Shown here: positions 13,461 to 32,053 of the stretch, piece by piece
Position numbering within the stretch: position 1 is the stretch's first letter
Layout of the letters: every line of letters starts with the position of its first letter
Source: Candidatus Sulfobium sp.
Lineage (GTDB): Bacteria; Nitrospirota; Thermodesulfovibrionia; Thermodesulfovibrionales; UBA6898
Reading direction: 5' to 3'
Length of the DNA: 45,380 nt
Assembly: GCA_037380845.1 (NCBI GenBank)
Contig: JARRRI010000022.1
Location: 13,767 to 59,146, forward strand
The notes under the pieces: model-generated
Database searches by the model: none
What the model saw: only the letters and a program-made list of their open reading frames with translations
What the model was told of the DNA's origin: nothing
Translations under genes and position numbers: made by a program

Positions 13461-14663
13461 TCAACAGACTGCATACGTCCCAACCGCAAGCCGCTCGCAG
13501 AAGTCCTCTATGTCGGCCAGTTCCCTTTCAATTATCAGTCCTGCCTGCCTCGAGATGTCGCGGAGCGCGAATCCCTCTTTCAGAAGGACCTGGGCCGTTG
13601 CCATGGTCGGCCTGTCGATAGGGGTGCCGATCTTGCTTAGAAGAAGTACGTAGACCTCTTTGATCCCATCGACATTCTTATATATCTTTTCCGCCGTCTT
13701 ATGGGCCAGGAGATTGTATATCTTCCCCACATGGCTGACCGGGTTTTTCCCTGCCGCGGCCTCCGTACCCATCGGCCGGTTTACGGAAATAAGACCATTT
13801 ACCCTGTTTCCTCTCCCGACCTGGCCGGAATCTCCACCCTCCGCAGATGTGCCCAGAAGGGTCATGTAAATGCCTCCGAGTCCTCTGCCTCTTTCATCAA
13901 GGGTGTTCAAATCCACGCTGACTGACGAGAATTCCCTGTATCTGCCGAGAAACTTCTCTACCTCCTTCCTTACAAGCTCCTTCCTCCTGAAATAATCCGT
14001 TTCGTTTTTTACGAAAAGAGATAAAAGAGGCATGGCGATGGTCAGGCCAAGACTCCTTCCGGTCCTGAGTGCCATGACCTTTATGTCTTCGCCGGTCTCG
14101 GGATACTTCTTCTTGAACTTCTTTGAATTCAGAAACCTCTCCAGGTTCAGAACCACCTCCTCCGTGGGTGAAAGAGGGTAATAGCCTATCAGGGCGGAAG
14201 TGTCGTTCGCGCCCCTAACTGTCCCGGGCCTCAGGAAGATATCGGTCAGTTCTTCCGATCCCGGCGCGAGGACGACACGGTATCTCACGTGCTTCTCGGG
14301 GTCGACAAACCTGAGGTTGTCCTTTATCCATTTCTTTGCGGCCGCCACCGCTATGTCGCGCACGGGGATTTTCCGGCCTTCTGCGGAAGCTGTCGCCCTG
14401 TCCCCGATCATAAGTTCCATCGGCTTTGCCAGGCTGCCTCCCCCGAAGCTTATCTTCGTCCTTCCGGCCGCAAGCAGCCCCTTGTCGACGTTATGATGCA
14501 AAACAGTCCCGAAGGTCTTTCTGTATTCGCGGCTGAGCGCGACGGATATGGATTCCATGATCGAGTCGCACATGAAATCGGGGTGCCCCGTCCCCTTCCT
14601 TTCCACGACCTCCACCCTGTGGTCTGTCACGGATTTTCCCCTGAAAGGCTCAACGACTATCAT
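13461..14663 (-). CDS. mat: S-adenosylmethionine synthetase, archaeal type
   Basis: EVVERKGTGHPD, HHNVDK, ANDTS, GEDIKVM, DSGQVGRGNR and AGKNPVSHVGKIYN. Confidence 0.92.
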   Translation of the reverse strand: MIVVEPFRGKSVTDHRVEVVERKGTGHPDFMCDSIMESISVALSREYRKTFGTVLHHNVDKGLLAAGRTKISFGGGSLAKPMELMIGDRATASAEGRKIPVRDIAVAAAKKWIKDNLRFVDPEKHVRYRVVLAPGSEELTDIFLRPGTVRGANDTSALIGYYPLSPTEEVVLNLERFLNSKKFKKKYPETGEDIKVMALRTGRSLGLTIAMPLLSLFVKNETDYFRRKELVRKEVEKFLGRYREFSSVSVDLNTLDERGRGLGGIYMTLLGTSAEGGDSGQVGRGNRVNGLISVNRPMGTEAAAGKNPVSHVGKIYNLLAHKTAEKIYKNVDGIKEVYVLLLSKIGTPIDRPTMATAQVLLKEGFALRDISRQAGLIIERELADIEDFCERLAVGTYAVC

Positions 14664-21800: not shown

Positions 21801-21820
21801 TGCCGCCAAATACAAATATT

Positions 21821-21994
21821 GTCGTCATGTCCGAAATTCTCAGACGGGCCGGCCAATCTGCCTGCAAACCCGGATTCCCGATGCGGGTCTCCGCTTAGGG
21901 TCGCTACGACTTCGCTGAGAGTCGCTTCGACCCGATTACTGCCTCGGGAACGACAAACTTGAAAAGCAGATCTCTTATGAAACGTTATGGTAAA
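21821..21994 (-). repeat. dispersed REP-like composite repeat, copy A
   Basis: Reverse complement aligns by eye with 41647-41809. Confidence 0.75.
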
Positions 21995-22097
21995 TGCCAC
22001 GTAAGACTGAGGGCCTTAGGGGCTATGCGGAGTTCAGGATATGGACTTTTTCAGCATGTTCGCCTCTCTTTGAGCCTGATCAGGATAGAATATGGGT

Positions 22098-23318
22098 ATG
22101 TTGAGACTGTTTAATTCACTGGGGAAGAAGATGGAAGAGTTCCATCCCATCGACAAAAAAGAGGTCGTGAATATCTTTACCTGCGGACCTTCGGTCTATC
22201 AGAGGGTCCATATAGGCAATTTCAGGACGTTCCTCTTCGAGGACGTCCTCGTGCGGTACCTGGAATATTCCGGTTACAGGGTGCAAAGAGGGATGACCAT
22301 TACGGACGTCGAGGACAAGGCGATCGAAGAAGCTGCAAAGAAGAGGAACGGGCTGTACCGGCTGGCCGAGGAAAACATAAGGAGGTTCCTCAGAGACGCT
22401 AAACTGCTACGCATAAAGGTCCCGGACTTCCTTCCCCGGGCGTCGGAAAGCGTGGAAGAGGCGGTGGACCTGATAGAGTCGCTCCTCCGAAAGAAGGTGG
22501 CCTATTGGCATGAAGACAACGTATACTTCGATCCACTGAAGTTCCCCGGCTTCGGGAAACTCTACGGCCTGGACATGTCAAGGTGGCCTTCAAAAAAGAG
22601 GAGGTTTCACAAAGACACCTATCCGGGAATGAGATGGAACCTCGGGGACTTTATTCTATGGCACGGATACAAAGACGGCGAGAAATATTACTGGGACACG
22701 AAGATAGGCCGGGGGAGACCAGCCTGGAACATCCAGGACCCCGCGATGGTCAGCCGGTACTTCGACGAACCTCTGTCCGCCTACTGCGGCGGTATCGACA
22801 ATCTGGTGAGACATCATGACTATACATGCGCCGTCCTTGAGTCGGTGAGGCCGTACCCGGCCGCGAAGTTCTGGCTCCATTGCCGGCATCTCCTCGTGGA
22901 AGGCAAAAAGATGTCGAAGAGCAAGGGAAACATCCACTATACGGACACACTTCTGAAGAAAGGTTACAATGCAGAGGAAGTCAGGTTCTTCCTCATCTAC
23001 GGCCGCTACCGAAGGCGGCTCAACTTCTCGGACACTGCTCTGAAATCGGCAGCAGGGAAACTGGGCCGGTTCAGAAAATACGTTAAGGAGATAAAGGCAA
23101 GGGCCGTCGCCGGGAGGACCGTCCCCTGCGATGTCTCACGACGGCTACATTCGGTCTTCATCGAAAAGATGGACGAAGACCTCGACGTAAAATCGGCCTT
23201 CGATGCGATGCAGGACGTGCTTTGCCGGGTAAAGGCGGAAGAATTGAAACCCGGCGAAGCCGTGCATGTTCTGAAGACACTGCGGGAAATAGACAAGGTC
23301 CTGCAGGTCGTCTTTTAG
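22098..23318 (+). CDS. cysteinyl-tRNA synthetase-like paralogue (class I aaRS fold, divergent active site, no anticodon domain)
   Basis: CGPSVY, HIGN and KMSKS present; GRPAWNIQDPAM and HHDYT replace GRPGWHIECSAM and HHENE; about 406 aa. Confidence 0.85.
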   Translation: MLRLFNSLGKKMEEFHPIDKKEVVNIFTCGPSVYQRVHIGNFRTFLFEDVLVRYLEYSGYRVQRGMTITDVEDKAIEEAAKKRNGLYRLAEENIRRFLRDAKLLRIKVPDFLPRASESVEEAVDLIESLLRKKVAYWHEDNVYFDPLKFPGFGKLYGLDMSRWPSKKRRFHKDTYPGMRWNLGDFILWHGYKDGEKYYWDTKIGRGRPAWNIQDPAMVSRYFDEPLSAYCGGIDNLVRHHDYTCAVLESVRPYPAAKFWLHCRHLLVEGKKMSKSKGNIHYTDTLLKKGYNAEEVRFFLIYGRYRRRLNFSDTALKSAAGKLGRFRKYVKEIKARAVAGRTVPCDVSRRLHSVFIEKMDEDLDVKSAFDAMQDVLCRVKAEELKPGEAVHVLKTLREIDKVLQVVF

Positions 23319-23407: not shown

Positions 23408-23818
23408 TCACTTACCGCCAAATTCTTTTTCGACCCTTTCCTTTATCTGTTTTACTGTATGTCCCTGCTTATACAACTCGGAAGCCATCAAGGCCTCCCT
23501 GAGACAAATATTTCAAGTTGCAGCGTGGCCGTCAACATAGCAGCTAAGAAGACTCTTGTGTCTAAATGCAGGGGACTCTTCACAAAGACAGGCGCAGTAG
23601 AGGCTGTCCAGTACCCAGGGGATGTTTTTTGCAGCCTGGTGGGCCTGTCTCAACCAGGAATTAGTAAACGTGTCAGGGTTGAGGGTTTCTCTTGTCTCCC
23701 CGTATCTCAGGGACTGGTCGAACCTGCCGCTTGCGTACCTGTCGGCTGCTTCCGCAGTTCCCGCAATCAACAGGACGGCAATTGCCATACCGTACAATAC
23801 GACATTCAAGCGCCTCAT
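23408..23818 (-). CDS. PCYCGC/CYCxC-type secreted protein, probable selenoprotein (UGA at 23513-23515)
   Basis: Signal peptide; LYCACLC and HKSLLSCYVDGHAAT-TGA-NIC; reading frame continues 34 codons to ...EKEFGGK*. Confidence 0.85.
23477..23503 (-). promoter_or_regulatory. candidate bacterial SECIS hairpin
   Basis: CTC-AG-GGAGGCC-TTGAT-GGCTTCC-GAG stem-loop starting 9 nt after the UGA. Confidence 0.55.
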
Positions 23819-24108: not shown

Positions 24109-25377
24109 TCACAGCAGCCGGGACGCCCGTTCGGCCACGGAGGATCGCGCCGTCTTGCTCAGATTGAGATAGCAGAAATTCTCCTCGTTGATGAACCTGT
24201 CGATAAGATATGCCAGACCGTTTGAGTGCGAATCGAGGAACGGATGGTCCACCTGCTCCAGATCGCCCGTAAAGACGATCTTTGTGCCCTCGCCGCACCT
24301 CGTTATGATCGTCTTGATATCAACAGGCCTCAACTGCTGCGCCTCGTCGACGATAAAATAACGCCTCGGCAGAGACCGGCCCCGTATATAAGTCAGGGGT
24401 TCGATCTGAATCACGCCCGAATCGATCAGATACTGATAGCTCCTGTACTTTACCGAGATATTGTCCTTGATCAGGCCCCTGGGCGTCCCCACAATAATCT
24501 CCAGGTTGTCGAAGATCGGCTGCATCCAGGGGTTCAGTTTCTCTTTTATATCGCCGGGCAGATACCCGATATCTATGCCCCCCAGAGGGACCGTCGGCCG
24601 TGCAACGAGGACCTGCTCGTAAAGCGGAGACTTCTTGGTCGTCTGGTGGAGGGCCGCGCTCAGTGCAAGAAGCGTCTTGCCCGTACCCGCCGTGCCCGTG
24701 AGGGCCACTATCTCGATTTCAGGCCTGGTCAGGGCATCGATCGCGCATTCCTGCTCCCTGTTTTTCGGAGAGATATTGTCCAGCGACCTGCTGCTTTTTA
24801 TCTTCGACTCGTTGTCCTTTCCCTGCAGCCTGAAGATGCCGGAGTCTGACTGCATATAGCGTATGGACAGTATTTTCCTTGAAGACTCTTTCCCCTCCAG
24901 GACCCGCCCGTGCTCTCTATAGATGGACGTCTTGTCATGCTTGTAATCCTGGGACGAGATCCCGAAGGACTCGGCTTTGATCCTGACCGCCGTGTCCTTC
25001 GACACAACCGCCACACCGCCGTTCTTATTCTTCCCGGCAAACTTCGCGGCGACCGATATGATCCTGTTGTCGGGCGAGTCCTTCAGTAACAGCGTTGACC
25101 GTTCATCGGTCTCTATCCGCAGCGTCCCCCCCTTGCCGTTGGGAATCATCACCCCTTTCGACAGATCGCCCTTGCCGCCGCTGCCGTTCTTGCAGAGCGA
25201 CCCCAGGAACTTCAGTGCCTGCCGGGCCGAGTAGGGTATCTCGCCGTGCCCCTTTTTCAGTTCGTCGAGCTCCTCGATCACCGAGATGGGGATCAGAATG
25301 TCATTGTCTTCGAACTTGAAGACAGATTTTGGATCGTGGATGAGGACGTTTGTGTCAAGGACGTAGATCTTTTTCAT
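24109..25377 (-). CDS. PIN domain-PhoH ATPase (PhoH2/YlaK-like)
   Basis: YVLDTNVL (PIN), GTAGTGKT (Walker A), IRGRSL, VDEAQ and TGDLEQVD. Confidence 0.93.
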   Translation of the reverse strand: MKKIYVLDTNVLIHDPKSVFKFEDNDILIPISVIEELDELKKGHGEIPYSARQALKFLGSLCKNGSGGKGDLSKGVMIPNGKGGTLRIETDERSTLLLKDSPDNRIISVAAKFAGKNKNGGVAVVSKDTAVRIKAESFGISSQDYKHDKTSIYREHGRVLEGKESSRKILSIRYMQSDSGIFRLQGKDNESKIKSSRSLDNISPKNREQECAIDALTRPEIEIVALTGTAGTGKTLLALSAALHQTTKKSPLYEQVLVARPTVPLGGIDIGYLPGDIKEKLNPWMQPIFDNLEIIVGTPRGLIKDNISVKYRSYQYLIDSGVIQIEPLTYIRGRSLPRRYFIVDEAQQLRPVDIKTIITRCGEGTKIVFTGDLEQVDHPFLDSHSNGLAYLIDRFINEENFCYLNLSKTARSSVAERASRLL

Positions 25378-30157: not shown

Positions 30158-32053
30158 GTGAAGGGGAAAAAGACAATTCTTGGGGTAGTCATGTTTTTTG
30201 CAATCCTTACTGGTAGTGCCTGGGCCGGCATGGCGGTGCCGGTATCCCCCGGAGGAGGGACGGAGCTGACGGCTCAGAGCTGTCCGACCTTCAGCTGGTC
30301 GGCCTCGGAAGGAGCGCAGTCGTACAGGGTGGAGGTCTACGAGCAGGTGACGAGTGACATCATAGACCGGGACAGCATGAGAGGGATTGGCAATCCAGTG
30401 ATTGCAAGGGAGATATCTGCTCCTGCTCTTTCGTGGACACCCTCATCAGGGGAATGCCTCAGCCGGGGGATGAGATATGTATGGTATGTAGAGGGAGTGG
30501 ACGCAAAGAGAAAGGGGCAATGGTCGGAGGGCCAGGGTTTTCAGGTGGAAGCTGCAGCCCTGAGCGTTGAGCAGAAGGAGGCGGTACAGGAGGTTGTCAG
30601 GGATTACGTGACAGGCGACCTATTAGATGCGACAAGCAAGGCGGCTGGTTCAGACACGACTGGCGAGACCTCAGAGCAGGCGGGAACGGCCAGCGCCATC
30701 ACGCCGCAGTCGATAGAGGAAGGTACTTATAACACTGCCTTTGGCACTAATGCGGCACATGACATGATAGGGGCAGGAACCTTTTCTACCGGGACCCAGG
30801 GCCACGTCTTCATTGGCGCAGATGCAGGTTATTCCACCGTCGCCGGCACTGGTGGCACCATCGGCAACAGCTTCTTTGGTTATAGGGCGGGCTATCTGAA
30901 CACGACAGGTGGTTACAATAGCTTCATTGGACACGGCGCCGGCCGATACAACACCACGGGTTATAATAACAGCTTTCTTGGATATATGGCTGGCTACCGT
31001 AACACTGTAGGTTTTGACAATACCTTCATCGGTCATAGAGCCGGCTACTCAAATATCAATGGTAGCTTTAACAGTTTTGTTGGCTATCAGGCTGGCTACA
31101 GAAATGCTCAGAGTCCCGAAGGTTTTCCTAGTTCCTATAACAGCTTTGTTGGCTATCAGGCTGGCTATTCCAACATCTATGGGGATCACAATAGCTTTTT
31201 TGGTTACAGAGCTGGCTACTCTAACTCCACTACCGACTATAACAGCTTTTTTGGTCATGAAGCCGGCTATAATAACAGCGGCGAGCGCAACAGCTTCTTT
31301 GGTACCTTAGCCGGCCATGCCAACAACGATGGCGATAGCAATAGTTTCTTTGGCGCTTGGTCCGGCATGCAGAACACCACGGGTTCTGGCAATAGTTTTT
31401 TTGGCTATCTGGCCGGCTATGCCAATACGGAGGGGCATGGGAACGTTTTCCTTGGAGTTAAGGCAGGCTATCATGAAACGGGGTCGGACAAACTCTACAT
31501 AGATAACTGCTATACCGGGGGATCTTCTTGTACGCAGCCCTTTATAAAGGGTGATTTTGCTGCCCGCACACTCCAGATCGACGGCAGCCTCACCATCGTC
31601 ACCATGGATACACCTTCCGACATTCGCTACAAGAAAGATATACATCCCCTTAAGTCGTCTCTTGAGAAGGTACTTGAACTCAGAGGGGTGGCCTATGAGT
31701 GGGACAAAGATAAGGTCCATGGGGCCGGCTTCAAGGAAGGTAGGCAGATAGGGTTGATTGCGCAGGAAGTGGAGAAGGTGCTCCCGGAACTGGTGCATAC
31801 AGATAGCGATGGCTATAAGACGCTTTCCTACGACAAACTCGGCCCTGTGCTTATCGAGGCGGTGAAGGAGCAGCAAAAGGAGATTACATATGAGAAAAGG
31901 GAGATCGCGGAGAAAGACGCCCGGATCGAGAGACTTGAAAAGGCGCTTCAGAAACAAAAGAAATCCTTAGAAACACAACAGGCGATGATAACGGCAATGA
32001 TGGCACGACTGGCGGCCATGGAACATCCTGCAAAGACGTTAGCACTTAAATAA
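30158..32053 (+). CDS. secreted tail-fibre-like protein with Gly-rich repeats and a C-terminal S74 intramolecular chaperone
   Basis: Signal peptide; beta-rich N-terminal domain; 17-aa NSFFGYxAG repeats; SDIRYKKDI...LRGVAYEW...IGLIAQEVEKVLPELV...LIEAVKEQQ. Confidence 0.88.
   Translation: MKGKKTILGVVMFFAILTGSAWAGMAVPVSPGGGTELTAQSCPTFSWSASEGAQSYRVEVYEQVTSDIIDRDSMRGIGNPVIAREISAPALSWTPSSGECLSRGMRYVWYVEGVDAKRKGQWSEGQGFQVEAAALSVEQKEAVQEVVRDYVTGDLLDATSKAAGSDTTGETSEQAGTASAITPQSIEEGTYNTAFGTNAAHDMIGAGTFSTGTQGHVFIGADAGYSTVAGTGGTIGNSFFGYRAGYLNTTGGYNSFIGHGAGRYNTTGYNNSFLGYMAGYRNTVGFDNTFIGHRAGYSNINGSFNSFVGYQAGYRNAQSPEGFPSSYNSFVGYQAGYSNIYGDHNSFFGYRAGYSNSTTDYNSFFGHEAGYNNSGERNSFFGTLAGHANNDGDSNSFFGAWSGMQNTTGSGNSFFGYLAGYANTEGHGNVFLGVKAGYHETGSDKLYIDNCYTGGSSCTQPFIKGDFAARTLQIDGSLTIVTMDTPSDIRYKKDIHPLKSSLEKVLELRGVAYEWDKDKVHGAGFKEGRQIGLIAQEVEKVLPELVHTDSDGYKTLSYDKLGPVLIEAVKEQQKEITYEKREIAEKDARIERLEKALQKQKKSLETQQAMITAMMARLAAMEHPAKTLALK
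30866..31470 (+). repeat. about 12 degenerate 51-nt coding tandem repeats
   Basis: AACAGCTT(C/T)xTTGG...GCxGGCTA units recur about every 51 nt. Confidence 0.8.

Follow-up and report, generated by a model that had tools for sequence, protein, structure and literature searches.

A predicted ligase family descended from cysteinyl-tRNA synthetase, without an anticodon-binding domain and with a rebuilt metal pocket

The gene, its product and its metal pocket

The window analysed here, a stretch of 45,380 nt from a Candidatus Sulfobium sp. genome (Nitrospirota; GenBank assembly GCA_037380845.1, contig JARRRI010000022.1, positions 13,767 to 59,146 of the forward strand), contains on its plus strand a gene for a predicted ligase derived from cysteinyl-tRNA synthetase (CysRS). 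The coding sequence extends over 22098..23318 and encodes 406 amino acids (aa) plus stop; database gene callers (protein P0001) start here, at the second ATG, and agree with the coordinates given in a first-pass annotation made from the letters of this DNA alone. Read from the first in-frame ATG at 22092, an alternative start two codons upstream, the open reading frame (ORF) spans 22092..23318 (+) and encodes 408 aa, and the residue numbers used below count from that ATG. Judged by its sequence, the gene is an intact member of a conserved, unstudied family that descends from CysRS, has no anticodon reader and possesses a rebuilt metal pocket.

Pfam assigned residues 22-320 to tRNA-synt_1e (4.4e-69) and returned no match of DALR_2 or CysS_C in the window protein. 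Its best solved relatives are the CysRS structures 8qhp and E. coli 1li5, and the alignment with the latter covers chain residues 1-390 of 461. Both results bear out the earlier statement that the anticodon domain is missing. On TIGR00435, the NCBIfam equivalog model of cysS, the protein reached 293.1 bits, under the cut-off of 340 (model positions 1-400 of 466 aligned), and on TIGR03447 (MshC) it reached 165.5 bits, under the cut-off of 485. The TIGR00435 score stayed under the cut-off in every family member listed (267-322 bits). The sources annotate family proteins as cysteinyl-tRNA synthetase or "class I tRNA ligase family protein", so the mislabelling as cysS that had been predicted does occur. 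AlphaFold, run on an alignment of 107 sequences, modelled the protein with a predicted local distance difference test score (pLDDT) of 95.7, dropping to 75 at the CP1 loop and to 87 at the KMSKS loop; this run was taken instead of a single-sequence run that was of no use (pLDDT 39). Foldseek ranked CysRS structures first (template modelling score, TM, 0.83-0.89), followed by MshC (0.82, 3c8z) and then MetRS, and a search of the ESM Atlas gave matches solely to CysRS-like and MshC-like clusters.

All motifs of the protein are given here with their plus-strand coordinates. CGPSVY (residues 31-36, 22182..22199) provides Cys31, the counterpart of the first metal ligand Cys28 of E. coli, together with the alpha-amino contact Gly32 and Ser34, at whose position CysRS and MshC have Thr. 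It is followed by HIGN (residues 40-43, 22209..22220), the class I HIGH signature for ATP binding, and by TITDVEDK (22296..22319), in which Thr71 (E. coli Thr68, MshC Thr83; an alpha-amino contact), Asp72 and Lys76 are kept. The CP1 loop, RWPSKKRRFHKDTYPGMRWNLGDFILWHG (22581..22667), lies on the acceptor side and is basic and aromatic. The segment GRPAWNIQDPAM (residues 208-219, 22713..22748) stands at the place of GRPGWHIECSAM in CysRS and keeps Trp212, and in YCGGIDN (22782..22802) the family-specific Cys232 ends a core strand ahead of the ribose-binding Asp236. VRHHDYT (residues 239-245, 22806..22826) takes the place of FPHHENE of CysRS, with His241 and His242 kept. The second class I signature, KMSKS (residues 273-277), was located at 22908..22922, and the helical-bundle motif KMDEDLDV, counterpart of E. 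coli MDDDFN, at 23166..23189; the C-terminus follows 42 residues further, without an anticodon-binding domain. The elements that the first-pass annotation had described as intact (CGPSVY, HIGN, KMSKS) and the two that it had described as altered (GRPAWNIQDPAM, VRHHDYT) are all present in the translation.

A word-indexed homologue search scored 8000 candidates, of which 7550 reached E<=1e-20 (ordinary CysRS included), and the 120 best were examined. These relatives are 384-426 aa long and 61-100% identical to the window protein. The WNIQD/HHDY combination noticed in the single sequence recurs among them: by pattern match, WN[IV][QE]D occurs in 120/120 and HHDY as well in 118/120. Since all of the closest relatives carry WN[IV][QE]D, the motif changes are not due to chance and represent a family-wide signature.

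For the pocket, 110 family members were aligned with 81 canonical CysRS, using E. coli cysS as numbering ruler; 80 of the 110 came from loci and had been pre-filtered on W[NH][IV][QE]D, and the other 30, from the database, were unfiltered. The zinc ligands of E. coli CysRS, which we take to be Cys28, Cys209, His234 and Glu238, correspond to Cys31, Asp216, His241 and Thr245 of the window protein. Hence Cys28 and His234 are kept and two ligand positions are replaced (C to D and E to T), precisely as proposed before. In the family, Cys31, Asp216 and His241 are invariant (100%), Cys232 (E. coli position 225) is conserved to 98%, and the Glu238 position is occupied by N, T or I. Conservation of 98-100% applies to Cys31, Gly32, Thr71, Trp212 (E. 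coli Trp205), His241 and His242 (His234 and His235), Asp236, HIGN and most of KMSKS, and the catalytic motifs are conserved to 94-100% across the 110 members. Seven replacements are fixed at 96-100% (E. coli numbers H206N, E208Q, C209D, S210P, P233R, E236D and N237Y; window numbers N213, Q215, D216, P217, R240, D243 and Y244), at positions where the 81 canonical enzymes have H, E, C, S, P, E and N at 73-100%. Further family changes are K185H (90%), Y26F (92%), T31S and Y152F, an aromatic residue for E. coli His224 and V or I for Gln241. This pattern shows an ATP site and an alpha-amino site that are intact, next to a side-chain/metal pocket and a CP1 loop that have been remodelled in the same, fixed manner throughout the family.

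Asp at the Cys209 position was also seen in four full-length CysRS-like proteins (P0151, P0216, P0244, P0139) with the motifs WH[IV]EDTA and HHE[CA][EV]; two of them, P0151 and P0139, have Cys at position 237, possibly a zinc ligand that has changed its place.

Compared with canonical enzymes, the family has two to three extra residues in the CP1 loop (residues 164-192). W165, P166, F172, T176, G179, W182 and G185 are specific to the family (97-100% conserved), and R171, D175, Y177, N183, D186 and F187 are common to many canonical CysRS. The family proteins have a median isoelectric point (pI) of 9.13 and a net charge of +10 (n=110) vs 6.08 and -7 in the corresponding region of canonical CysRS (n=81), and the CP1 loop taken by itself has a pI of 9.5 vs 5.1.

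The window genome (G000; 100% complete, 1.8% contamination) has a canonical cysS on another contig (C34:14235-15677; 581.6 bits, with DALR_2 and CysS_C), whose product is 32% identical to the window protein. Because a genome of 100% completeness has this separate canonical copy, the window protein is a paralogue and not the working CysRS of the cell. The paralogue status assigned by the first-pass annotation therefore stands, and the gene is not the only cysS of a complete genome. The same holds beyond this genome. Another route to Cys-tRNA was found in 47/47 family-bearing genomes tested (the window genome counted), a count in which the completeness figure stands for the window genome and genomes reached through loci enter without one: 43 had a second match above the cysS cut-off, three Methanosarcinaceae had SepRS instead (741, 749 and 739 bits), and one metagenome-assembled genome (MAG) of a spirochaete had two canonical-type fragments, one at a contig end.

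The canonical CysS of the window genome is itself part of a single open frame of 747 aa (L001 712..2955, on C34), behind a serine acetyltransferase (SATase_N, Hexapep), which makes it an apparent CysE-CysS fusion. In Desulfobacterota genomes, similar open frames with lengths of 760-890 aa are found repeatedly.

Distribution, descent and genomic neighbourhood

A contig scan of genomes found 192 stretches encoding the family, of which the best 80 were kept for the analysis of distribution and loci. Among these 80, the family was seen in Thermodesulfovibrionales and Ca. Sulfobium, Syntrophales, Syntrophobacteraceae, Desulfobacterales, Desulfarculales, Desulfonatronovibrio, Spirochaetaceae, Bathyarchaeia and Methanosarcinaceae, i.e., in five phyla and two domains (including Nitrospirota, Desulfobacterota, Spirochaetota, Bathyarchaeia and Methanosarcinaceae), all of them taxa that we take to be strict anaerobes. 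Bacterial and archaeal members are 46-50% identical. In the Nitrospirota sample, 2/151 genomes carry the family (2/110 of those of high quality). Being this rare in its own phylum and yet spread over phyla and domains, the family gene is therefore a patchy accessory gene, transferred across phylum and domain borders. No named isolate was found among the ten family clusters looked up for cultured hosts.

A phylogenetic tree of 59 rows was computed under a site-heterogeneous model with a quick search and without an outgroup; the long or fused rows P0207, P0167, P0136 and P0139 were left out. All 20 family rows fell on one side of a branch with an SH-aLRT value of 100 and a stem length of 0.8. 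Closest to them come short forms whose pockets are canonical, P0143 and then P0131, P0150 and P0181 (support 95 and 96), the latter three derived from Micrarchaeia, Iainarchaeum and Micrarchaeota MAGs. These short CysRS forms of DPANN archaea resemble the family in their length of ~410 aa, the missing anticodon domain, their basic charge and a similar C-terminal end. Unlike the family, they keep WHIEC and HH(E/D)NE (WSIEC in P0150), which presumably makes them genuine CysRS. An intermediate state is seen in P0181, which has N206, Q208 and T238 but keeps Cys209.

In Desulfobacterales, Mukai et al. (2017, PMC5389517) described CysRS*, an additional CysRS copy that has no anticodon domain, follows directly downstream of selC*-selB* and carries an altered CP1 motif. 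We located candidate CysRS* copies in 6/17 Desulfococcaceae genomes; at all six loci the gene lies directly 3' of an ORF with a SelB-like C-terminus, and SelB domains were confirmed by Pfam for two of these ORFs. Five copies scored 470-490 bits on TIGR00435. Their pocket reads PGWH[MI]ECSA in four and PGWHMKCSA in one, with FPHHENE in all five. CysRS* nests inside the bacterial canonical CysRS, beside the window genome's own CysS, and CysRS* and the family form separate clades, each with a support of 100. The tree thus indicates that the anticodon domain was lost at least twice, independently in the family and in CysRS*.

The Desulfococcaceae genomes (G001-G021) hold two to four of four kinds of CysRS-like genes: canonical, long fused, selB*-linked CysRS* and the WNIQD family.

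Of the 80 loci fetched, the family gene was found by script in 75, where a simple ORF caller was used, and all 1133 ORFs of the 80 loci were clustered. Pfam was run on 143 of the 247 cluster representatives within 3 kb, the remaining 104 being left out owing to broken frames, the residue limit or size. We found no conserved operon partner: no neighbour cluster occurred in more than 16 loci, those that came close were restricted to a single lineage, and there was no shared Pfam theme. The gene neighbourhoods that the first-pass annotation had proposed to examine offered, in the 75 loci, no partner common across lineages. A MATE gene adjoins the family gene in four Nitrospirota loci and one spirochaete locus and also lies upstream in the window, where the 290-bp gap between the MATE gene and the ligase gene (21801..22091) has no Rfam match and no tRNA. 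This gap is not conserved, since in the close relative L005 the MATE gene ends 4 bp ahead of the ligase gene. CNNM/CorC is a neighbour in 16 Syntrophobacterales or Desulfarculales loci, and an OsmC-hydrolase fusion and HPF-CSD are further neighbours in Syntrophobacterales and Desulfarculales. In nine Bathyarchaeia loci DinB lies ~16 bp from the family gene, and two Spirochaetales loci and one Desulfobacteraceae locus also have it next to the gene; given the many families looked at, we do not count this proximity as significant. What remains around the gene is a scatter of housekeeping genes, such as LeuRS, a class I W/Y-type tRNA synthetase, LepA, pyrF, trpF and transketolase, and the small ORFs adjoining the family gene look spurious. 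A scan for promoters and terminators gave nothing above shuffles. Fused forms of the family were not found at E<=1e-60 among proteins of 712-2030 aa, which is weak evidence.

Several candidate links were tried and rejected. A role in phage defence was dismissed, as PADLOC gave no match for the ligase. The same applies to a SepRS analogue, with SepRS not found in G000 and SepCysS not found in four of five carriers (G000, G002, G003, G005), and to a pyrrolysine link, with PylS in one of five family-bearing genomes. A connection to selenocysteine (Sec), selC* or SelB* was rejected because the archaeal carriers G004 and G005 have no tRNA-Sec-like gene above the Rfam cut-off; the same two carriers also speak against a link to the convergent selenoprotein gene, which the first-pass annotation had itself called speculative. 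A zinc-starvation (Zur) paralogue was given up as a reading of its own, no Zur, COG0523 or Znu being found among the annotated neighbours; the idea, which goes back to the CysS2 copy of a Cupriavidus Zur operon (PMC10882993) and to PMC10957091, survives within the back-up CysRS explanation discussed below.

The window genome encodes a single SelB above the cut-off, ~70 kb past the window end, and no SelB cluster was present among the 75 loci analysed. It also has tRNA-Sec plus a selC*-like tRNA-Cys(GCA) of 94 nt. The latter, a second tRNA-Cys(GCA) at G000:C62:31154-31247, has an 8-bp acceptor stem, a long variable arm and U73, and reaches 47.3 bits on the tRNA-Sec model. It resembles the selC* tRNA-Cys reported by Mukai et al. 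2017; in this genome it has neither a selB* nor a cysS* partner.

Convergent to the ligase gene, at 23408..23818 (-), a gene that reads through one TGA (23513-23515) encodes a secreted-looking protein of 136 aa. Pfam matched PCYCGC (PF13798) with 30.4 bits vs a cut-off of 25 over residues 56-133, across the TGA, which corresponds to U102 in HAATUNIC. With SelB and tRNA-Sec encoded in the genome, the product is plausible as a selenoprotein; a hairpin past the TGA was no more stable than shuffled sequences (z -1.2). Elsewhere in the window, an archaeal-type S-adenosylmethionine synthetase (PF01941, 537 bits) is encoded at 13461..14663 (-) in this Nitrospirota bacterium, a PIN plus PhoH-like ATPase fusion with weak PADLOC matches to Nhi, AbiO and GajB (best 34.6 bits) at 24109..25377 (-), and a phage tail fibre-like protein of 631 aa with a Peptidase_S74 (endosialidase chaperone) domain at 30158..32053 (+).

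Proposed reaction and competing explanations

Our tentative reading of the gene product is that of an active class I ligase with a new function, which arose from a CysRS without anticodon domain and is not the cell's CysRS. Such an enzyme would very probably still form an aminoacyl-adenylate. Its metal site probably persists, because Cys31, Asp216 and His241 are invariant and Cys232 is conserved to 98%; it would be composed of Cys31, Asp216 and His241, perhaps with Cys232, and the side chain of the substrate would be held through the metal. The Rossmann fold has the strand order 3-2-1-4-5, and for this reason Cys31 (end of strand 1) and Cys232 (end of the first core strand past CP1) should lie side by side near His241. 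The amino acid could be cysteine itself, which we suggest with some reservation, or else another metal-binding one with a thiol, selenol or hydroxyl group. Subsequently, the activated amino acid would, on balance, be passed to an RNA 3' end or another tRNA-like site and not to a small molecule. An RNA acceptor is favoured because the family appears to descend from archaeal forms without anticodon-binding domain that are annotated as tRNA ligases, because it retains the stem-contact domain, the helical domain and a portion of the ancestral CP1 loop, and because it has turned strongly basic. The gene would move by transfer among strict anaerobes of both domains as an accessory gene.

From the two replaced ligands, the first-pass annotation had gone on to a different substrate or a non-tRNA acceptor. 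The replacements do not establish a substrate other than cysteine, nor a loss of the metal, considering the invariant Cys31, Asp216 and His241, the nearly invariant Cys232 and the three-ligand precedent of MshC. Zinc sites made of Asp, Cys and His bind thiolates in farnesyltransferase. Since sites of that type do so and MshC needs three protein ligands only, a Cys/Asp/His(+Cys) metal site that binds a thiol remains compatible with the pocket, and cysteine is possible as the substrate. In ThrRS, a hydroxyl amino acid is bound at a metal site; by analogy, the harder ligand set of the family could instead be better suited to a hydroxyl amino acid or to a different metal, for example Fe(II). A more specific version, to which we give rather little credence, is that a CysRS descendant without anticodon-binding domain and with a re-tuned Cys/Asp/His metal site activates a non-Cys amino acid and loads it onto an RNA acceptor, either a tRNA outside the standard code or a modified nucleoside as in the case of GluQRS. 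If true, this would mean an unrecognised system of RNA aminoacylation or modification common to strict anaerobes of both domains, and a new class I synthetase specificity.

Several points weigh against a ligase with such a metal site and an RNA acceptor. The proposed Cys31/Asp216/His241(/Cys232) site was derived from sequence and fold topology only, and the pocket changes cannot separate a metal swap from a change of amino acid. No dedicated tRNA or other RNA gene lies beside the ligase gene, as the window has no tRNA and no Rfam match at gathering score; a tRNA occurs in 6/80 related loci, of differing kinds and none consistent. The basic charge may in part be inherited from lysine-rich DPANN ancestors instead of reflecting selection for RNA binding, and the aromatic, Asp/Asn-rich CP1 loop would be equally suited to a sugar or nucleoside acceptor, as in MshC. 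To our knowledge, mshA-D are not clustered either, so that the missing operon is compatible with a small-molecule pathway.

The first-pass annotation had named a non-tRNA acceptor as one possibility. An MshC-like, tRNA-independent ligase would adenylate Cys or a similar amino acid, attach it to an amine or hydroxyl group on a small metabolite (for example, an amino sugar or a nucleoside) and yield a low-molecular-weight conjugate peculiar to anaerobes, possibly a thiol. The architecture of MshC is matched (~410 aa, no anticodon domain, TM 0.82 to 3c8z), invariant Trp, Phe, Tyr, Asp and Asn residues abound in the CP1 loop, and three candidate metal ligands are kept, comparable to the three protein ligands plus substrate thiol described for MshC (PMC9736012). 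Exporter neighbours in several lineages (MATE in four Nitrospirota and one spirochaete, CNNM/CorC in 16 loci) would fit as well, but they are lineage-specific and could be chance, and no recurrent glycosyltransferase, deacetylase or acetyltransferase partner was found in the 75 of 80 loci in which the family gene was found. Moreover, the TIGR03447 score is 165.5 bits vs a cut-off of 485, the protein is strongly basic, and the proteins most closely related to it, from DPANN archaea, are annotated as tRNA ligases. The non-tRNA acceptor is thus retained as one option, albeit a doubtful one, as descent from archaeal CysRS without anticodon-binding domain and the basic surface lean to RNA. The same descent fits a back-up ligase for Cys-tRNA-Cys with a metal site re-tuned (perhaps to take Fe(II) or to bind scarce Zn differently) for sulfidic, zinc-poor, anoxic habitats, reading tRNA-Cys by the acceptor stem alone, as is thought for the DPANN short forms and CysRS*. 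The nearest relatives are forms without anticodon-binding domain that have canonical pockets, Trp212, Cys31, His241, Gly32 and Thr71 are invariant, some ancestral CP1 residues persist (R171, D175, Y177, D186, F187), the family was seen only in presumably strict anaerobes, and it always coexists with another Cys-tRNA route, like back-up paralogues. Zinc-starvation CysS2 copies are reported from elsewhere (PMC10882993). Yet about ten strictly conserved pocket residues of CysRS are replaced, well beyond the two ligands, the annotated neighbours include no Zur, COG0523 or Znu, the family is never the sole Cys-tRNA route in the 47 genomes tested, and TIGR00435 remains under its cut-off in every listed member (267-322 bits), all of which makes a back-up CysRS unlikely in our judgement.

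A catalytically dead regulator that binds RNA or protein (a pseudo-enzyme) would have a parallel in the divergent relative P0167, which is without the Cys, HIGH and KMSKS motifs. With catalytic motifs conserved to 94-100% in 110 members, a degree not expected without catalysis, we consider this explanation barely credible for the family.

Significance and comparison with known CysRS-related enzymes

Our literature search on CysRS paralogues found MshC, CysRS* and CysS2 and no description of a WN[IV]QD / RHHDY family; the passages on CysRS paralogues in PMC9437257, PMC2922099 and PMC5424206 name MshC and CysRS* only. The family would thus be the third lineage of CysRS paralogues after these two, and by far more widespread, with its occurrence in five phyla and two domains. 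The rebuilt site is the amino-acid-selecting metal site, the feature by which CysRS works without editing, and the amino acid, metal and acceptor, once known, would show how synthetase specificity shifts at a metal centre. They could also uncover an RNA modification, a charging reaction or a metabolite in sulfate reducers, syntrophs, methylotrophic methanogens and Bathyarchaeia. Recognition of the family would, in addition, correct a systematic misannotation as "cysteinyl-tRNA synthetase" in metagenome catalogues.

With canonical CysRS (TIGR00435; PDB 8QHP, 1LI5/1U0B), the family has in common the fold, HIGN, KMSKS, the stem-contact and helical-bundle domains and the equivalents of Cys28, His234, His235, Trp205, Gly29 and Thr68. 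The canonical enzyme differs in having an anticodon-binding domain, Cys209 and Glu238, an acidic pI (6.1) and a smaller, non-basic CP1 loop. Like CysRS*, the family represents a second CysRS copy in sulfate reducers that has no anticodon domain and a changed CP1 motif. Unlike CysRS*, it has the PAWNIQDPA and VRHHDYT pocket, no adjoining selC*/selB* and TIGR00435 scores under the cut-off. GluQRS (YadB) is described as a truncated GluRS without anticodon domain that glutamylates queuosine in tRNA-Asp (PMC9437257). It offers an analogy only, that of a stand-alone class I paralogue acting on RNA outside normal charging, in a different synthetase family, and our analysis gave no sign of a modified-nucleoside target as for GluQRS.

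The closest functional counterpart in architecture is MshC, the cysteine:GlcN-Ins ligase of mycothiol synthesis (TIGR03447; PDB 3C8Z, 8HFM), likewise a CysRS paralogue of ~410 aa without anticodon domain. Its zinc is reported to be held by Cys43, Cys231 and His256, i.e., three protein ligands, plus the substrate thiol (PMC9736012). In the family, the equivalent of Cys231 is Asp216 (assigned through E. coli numbering, not by direct alignment with MshC), the proteins are basic, and the hosts are anaerobes of other phyla, whereas MshC belongs to Actinobacteria. The family is therefore neither CysRS* nor MshC, being set apart from the latter by profile score and residue equivalence, not by the tree. 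MshC sets the example of a CysRS paralogue that uses an acceptor other than tRNA and that holds its metal by three protein ligands, the latter being what we propose for the family.

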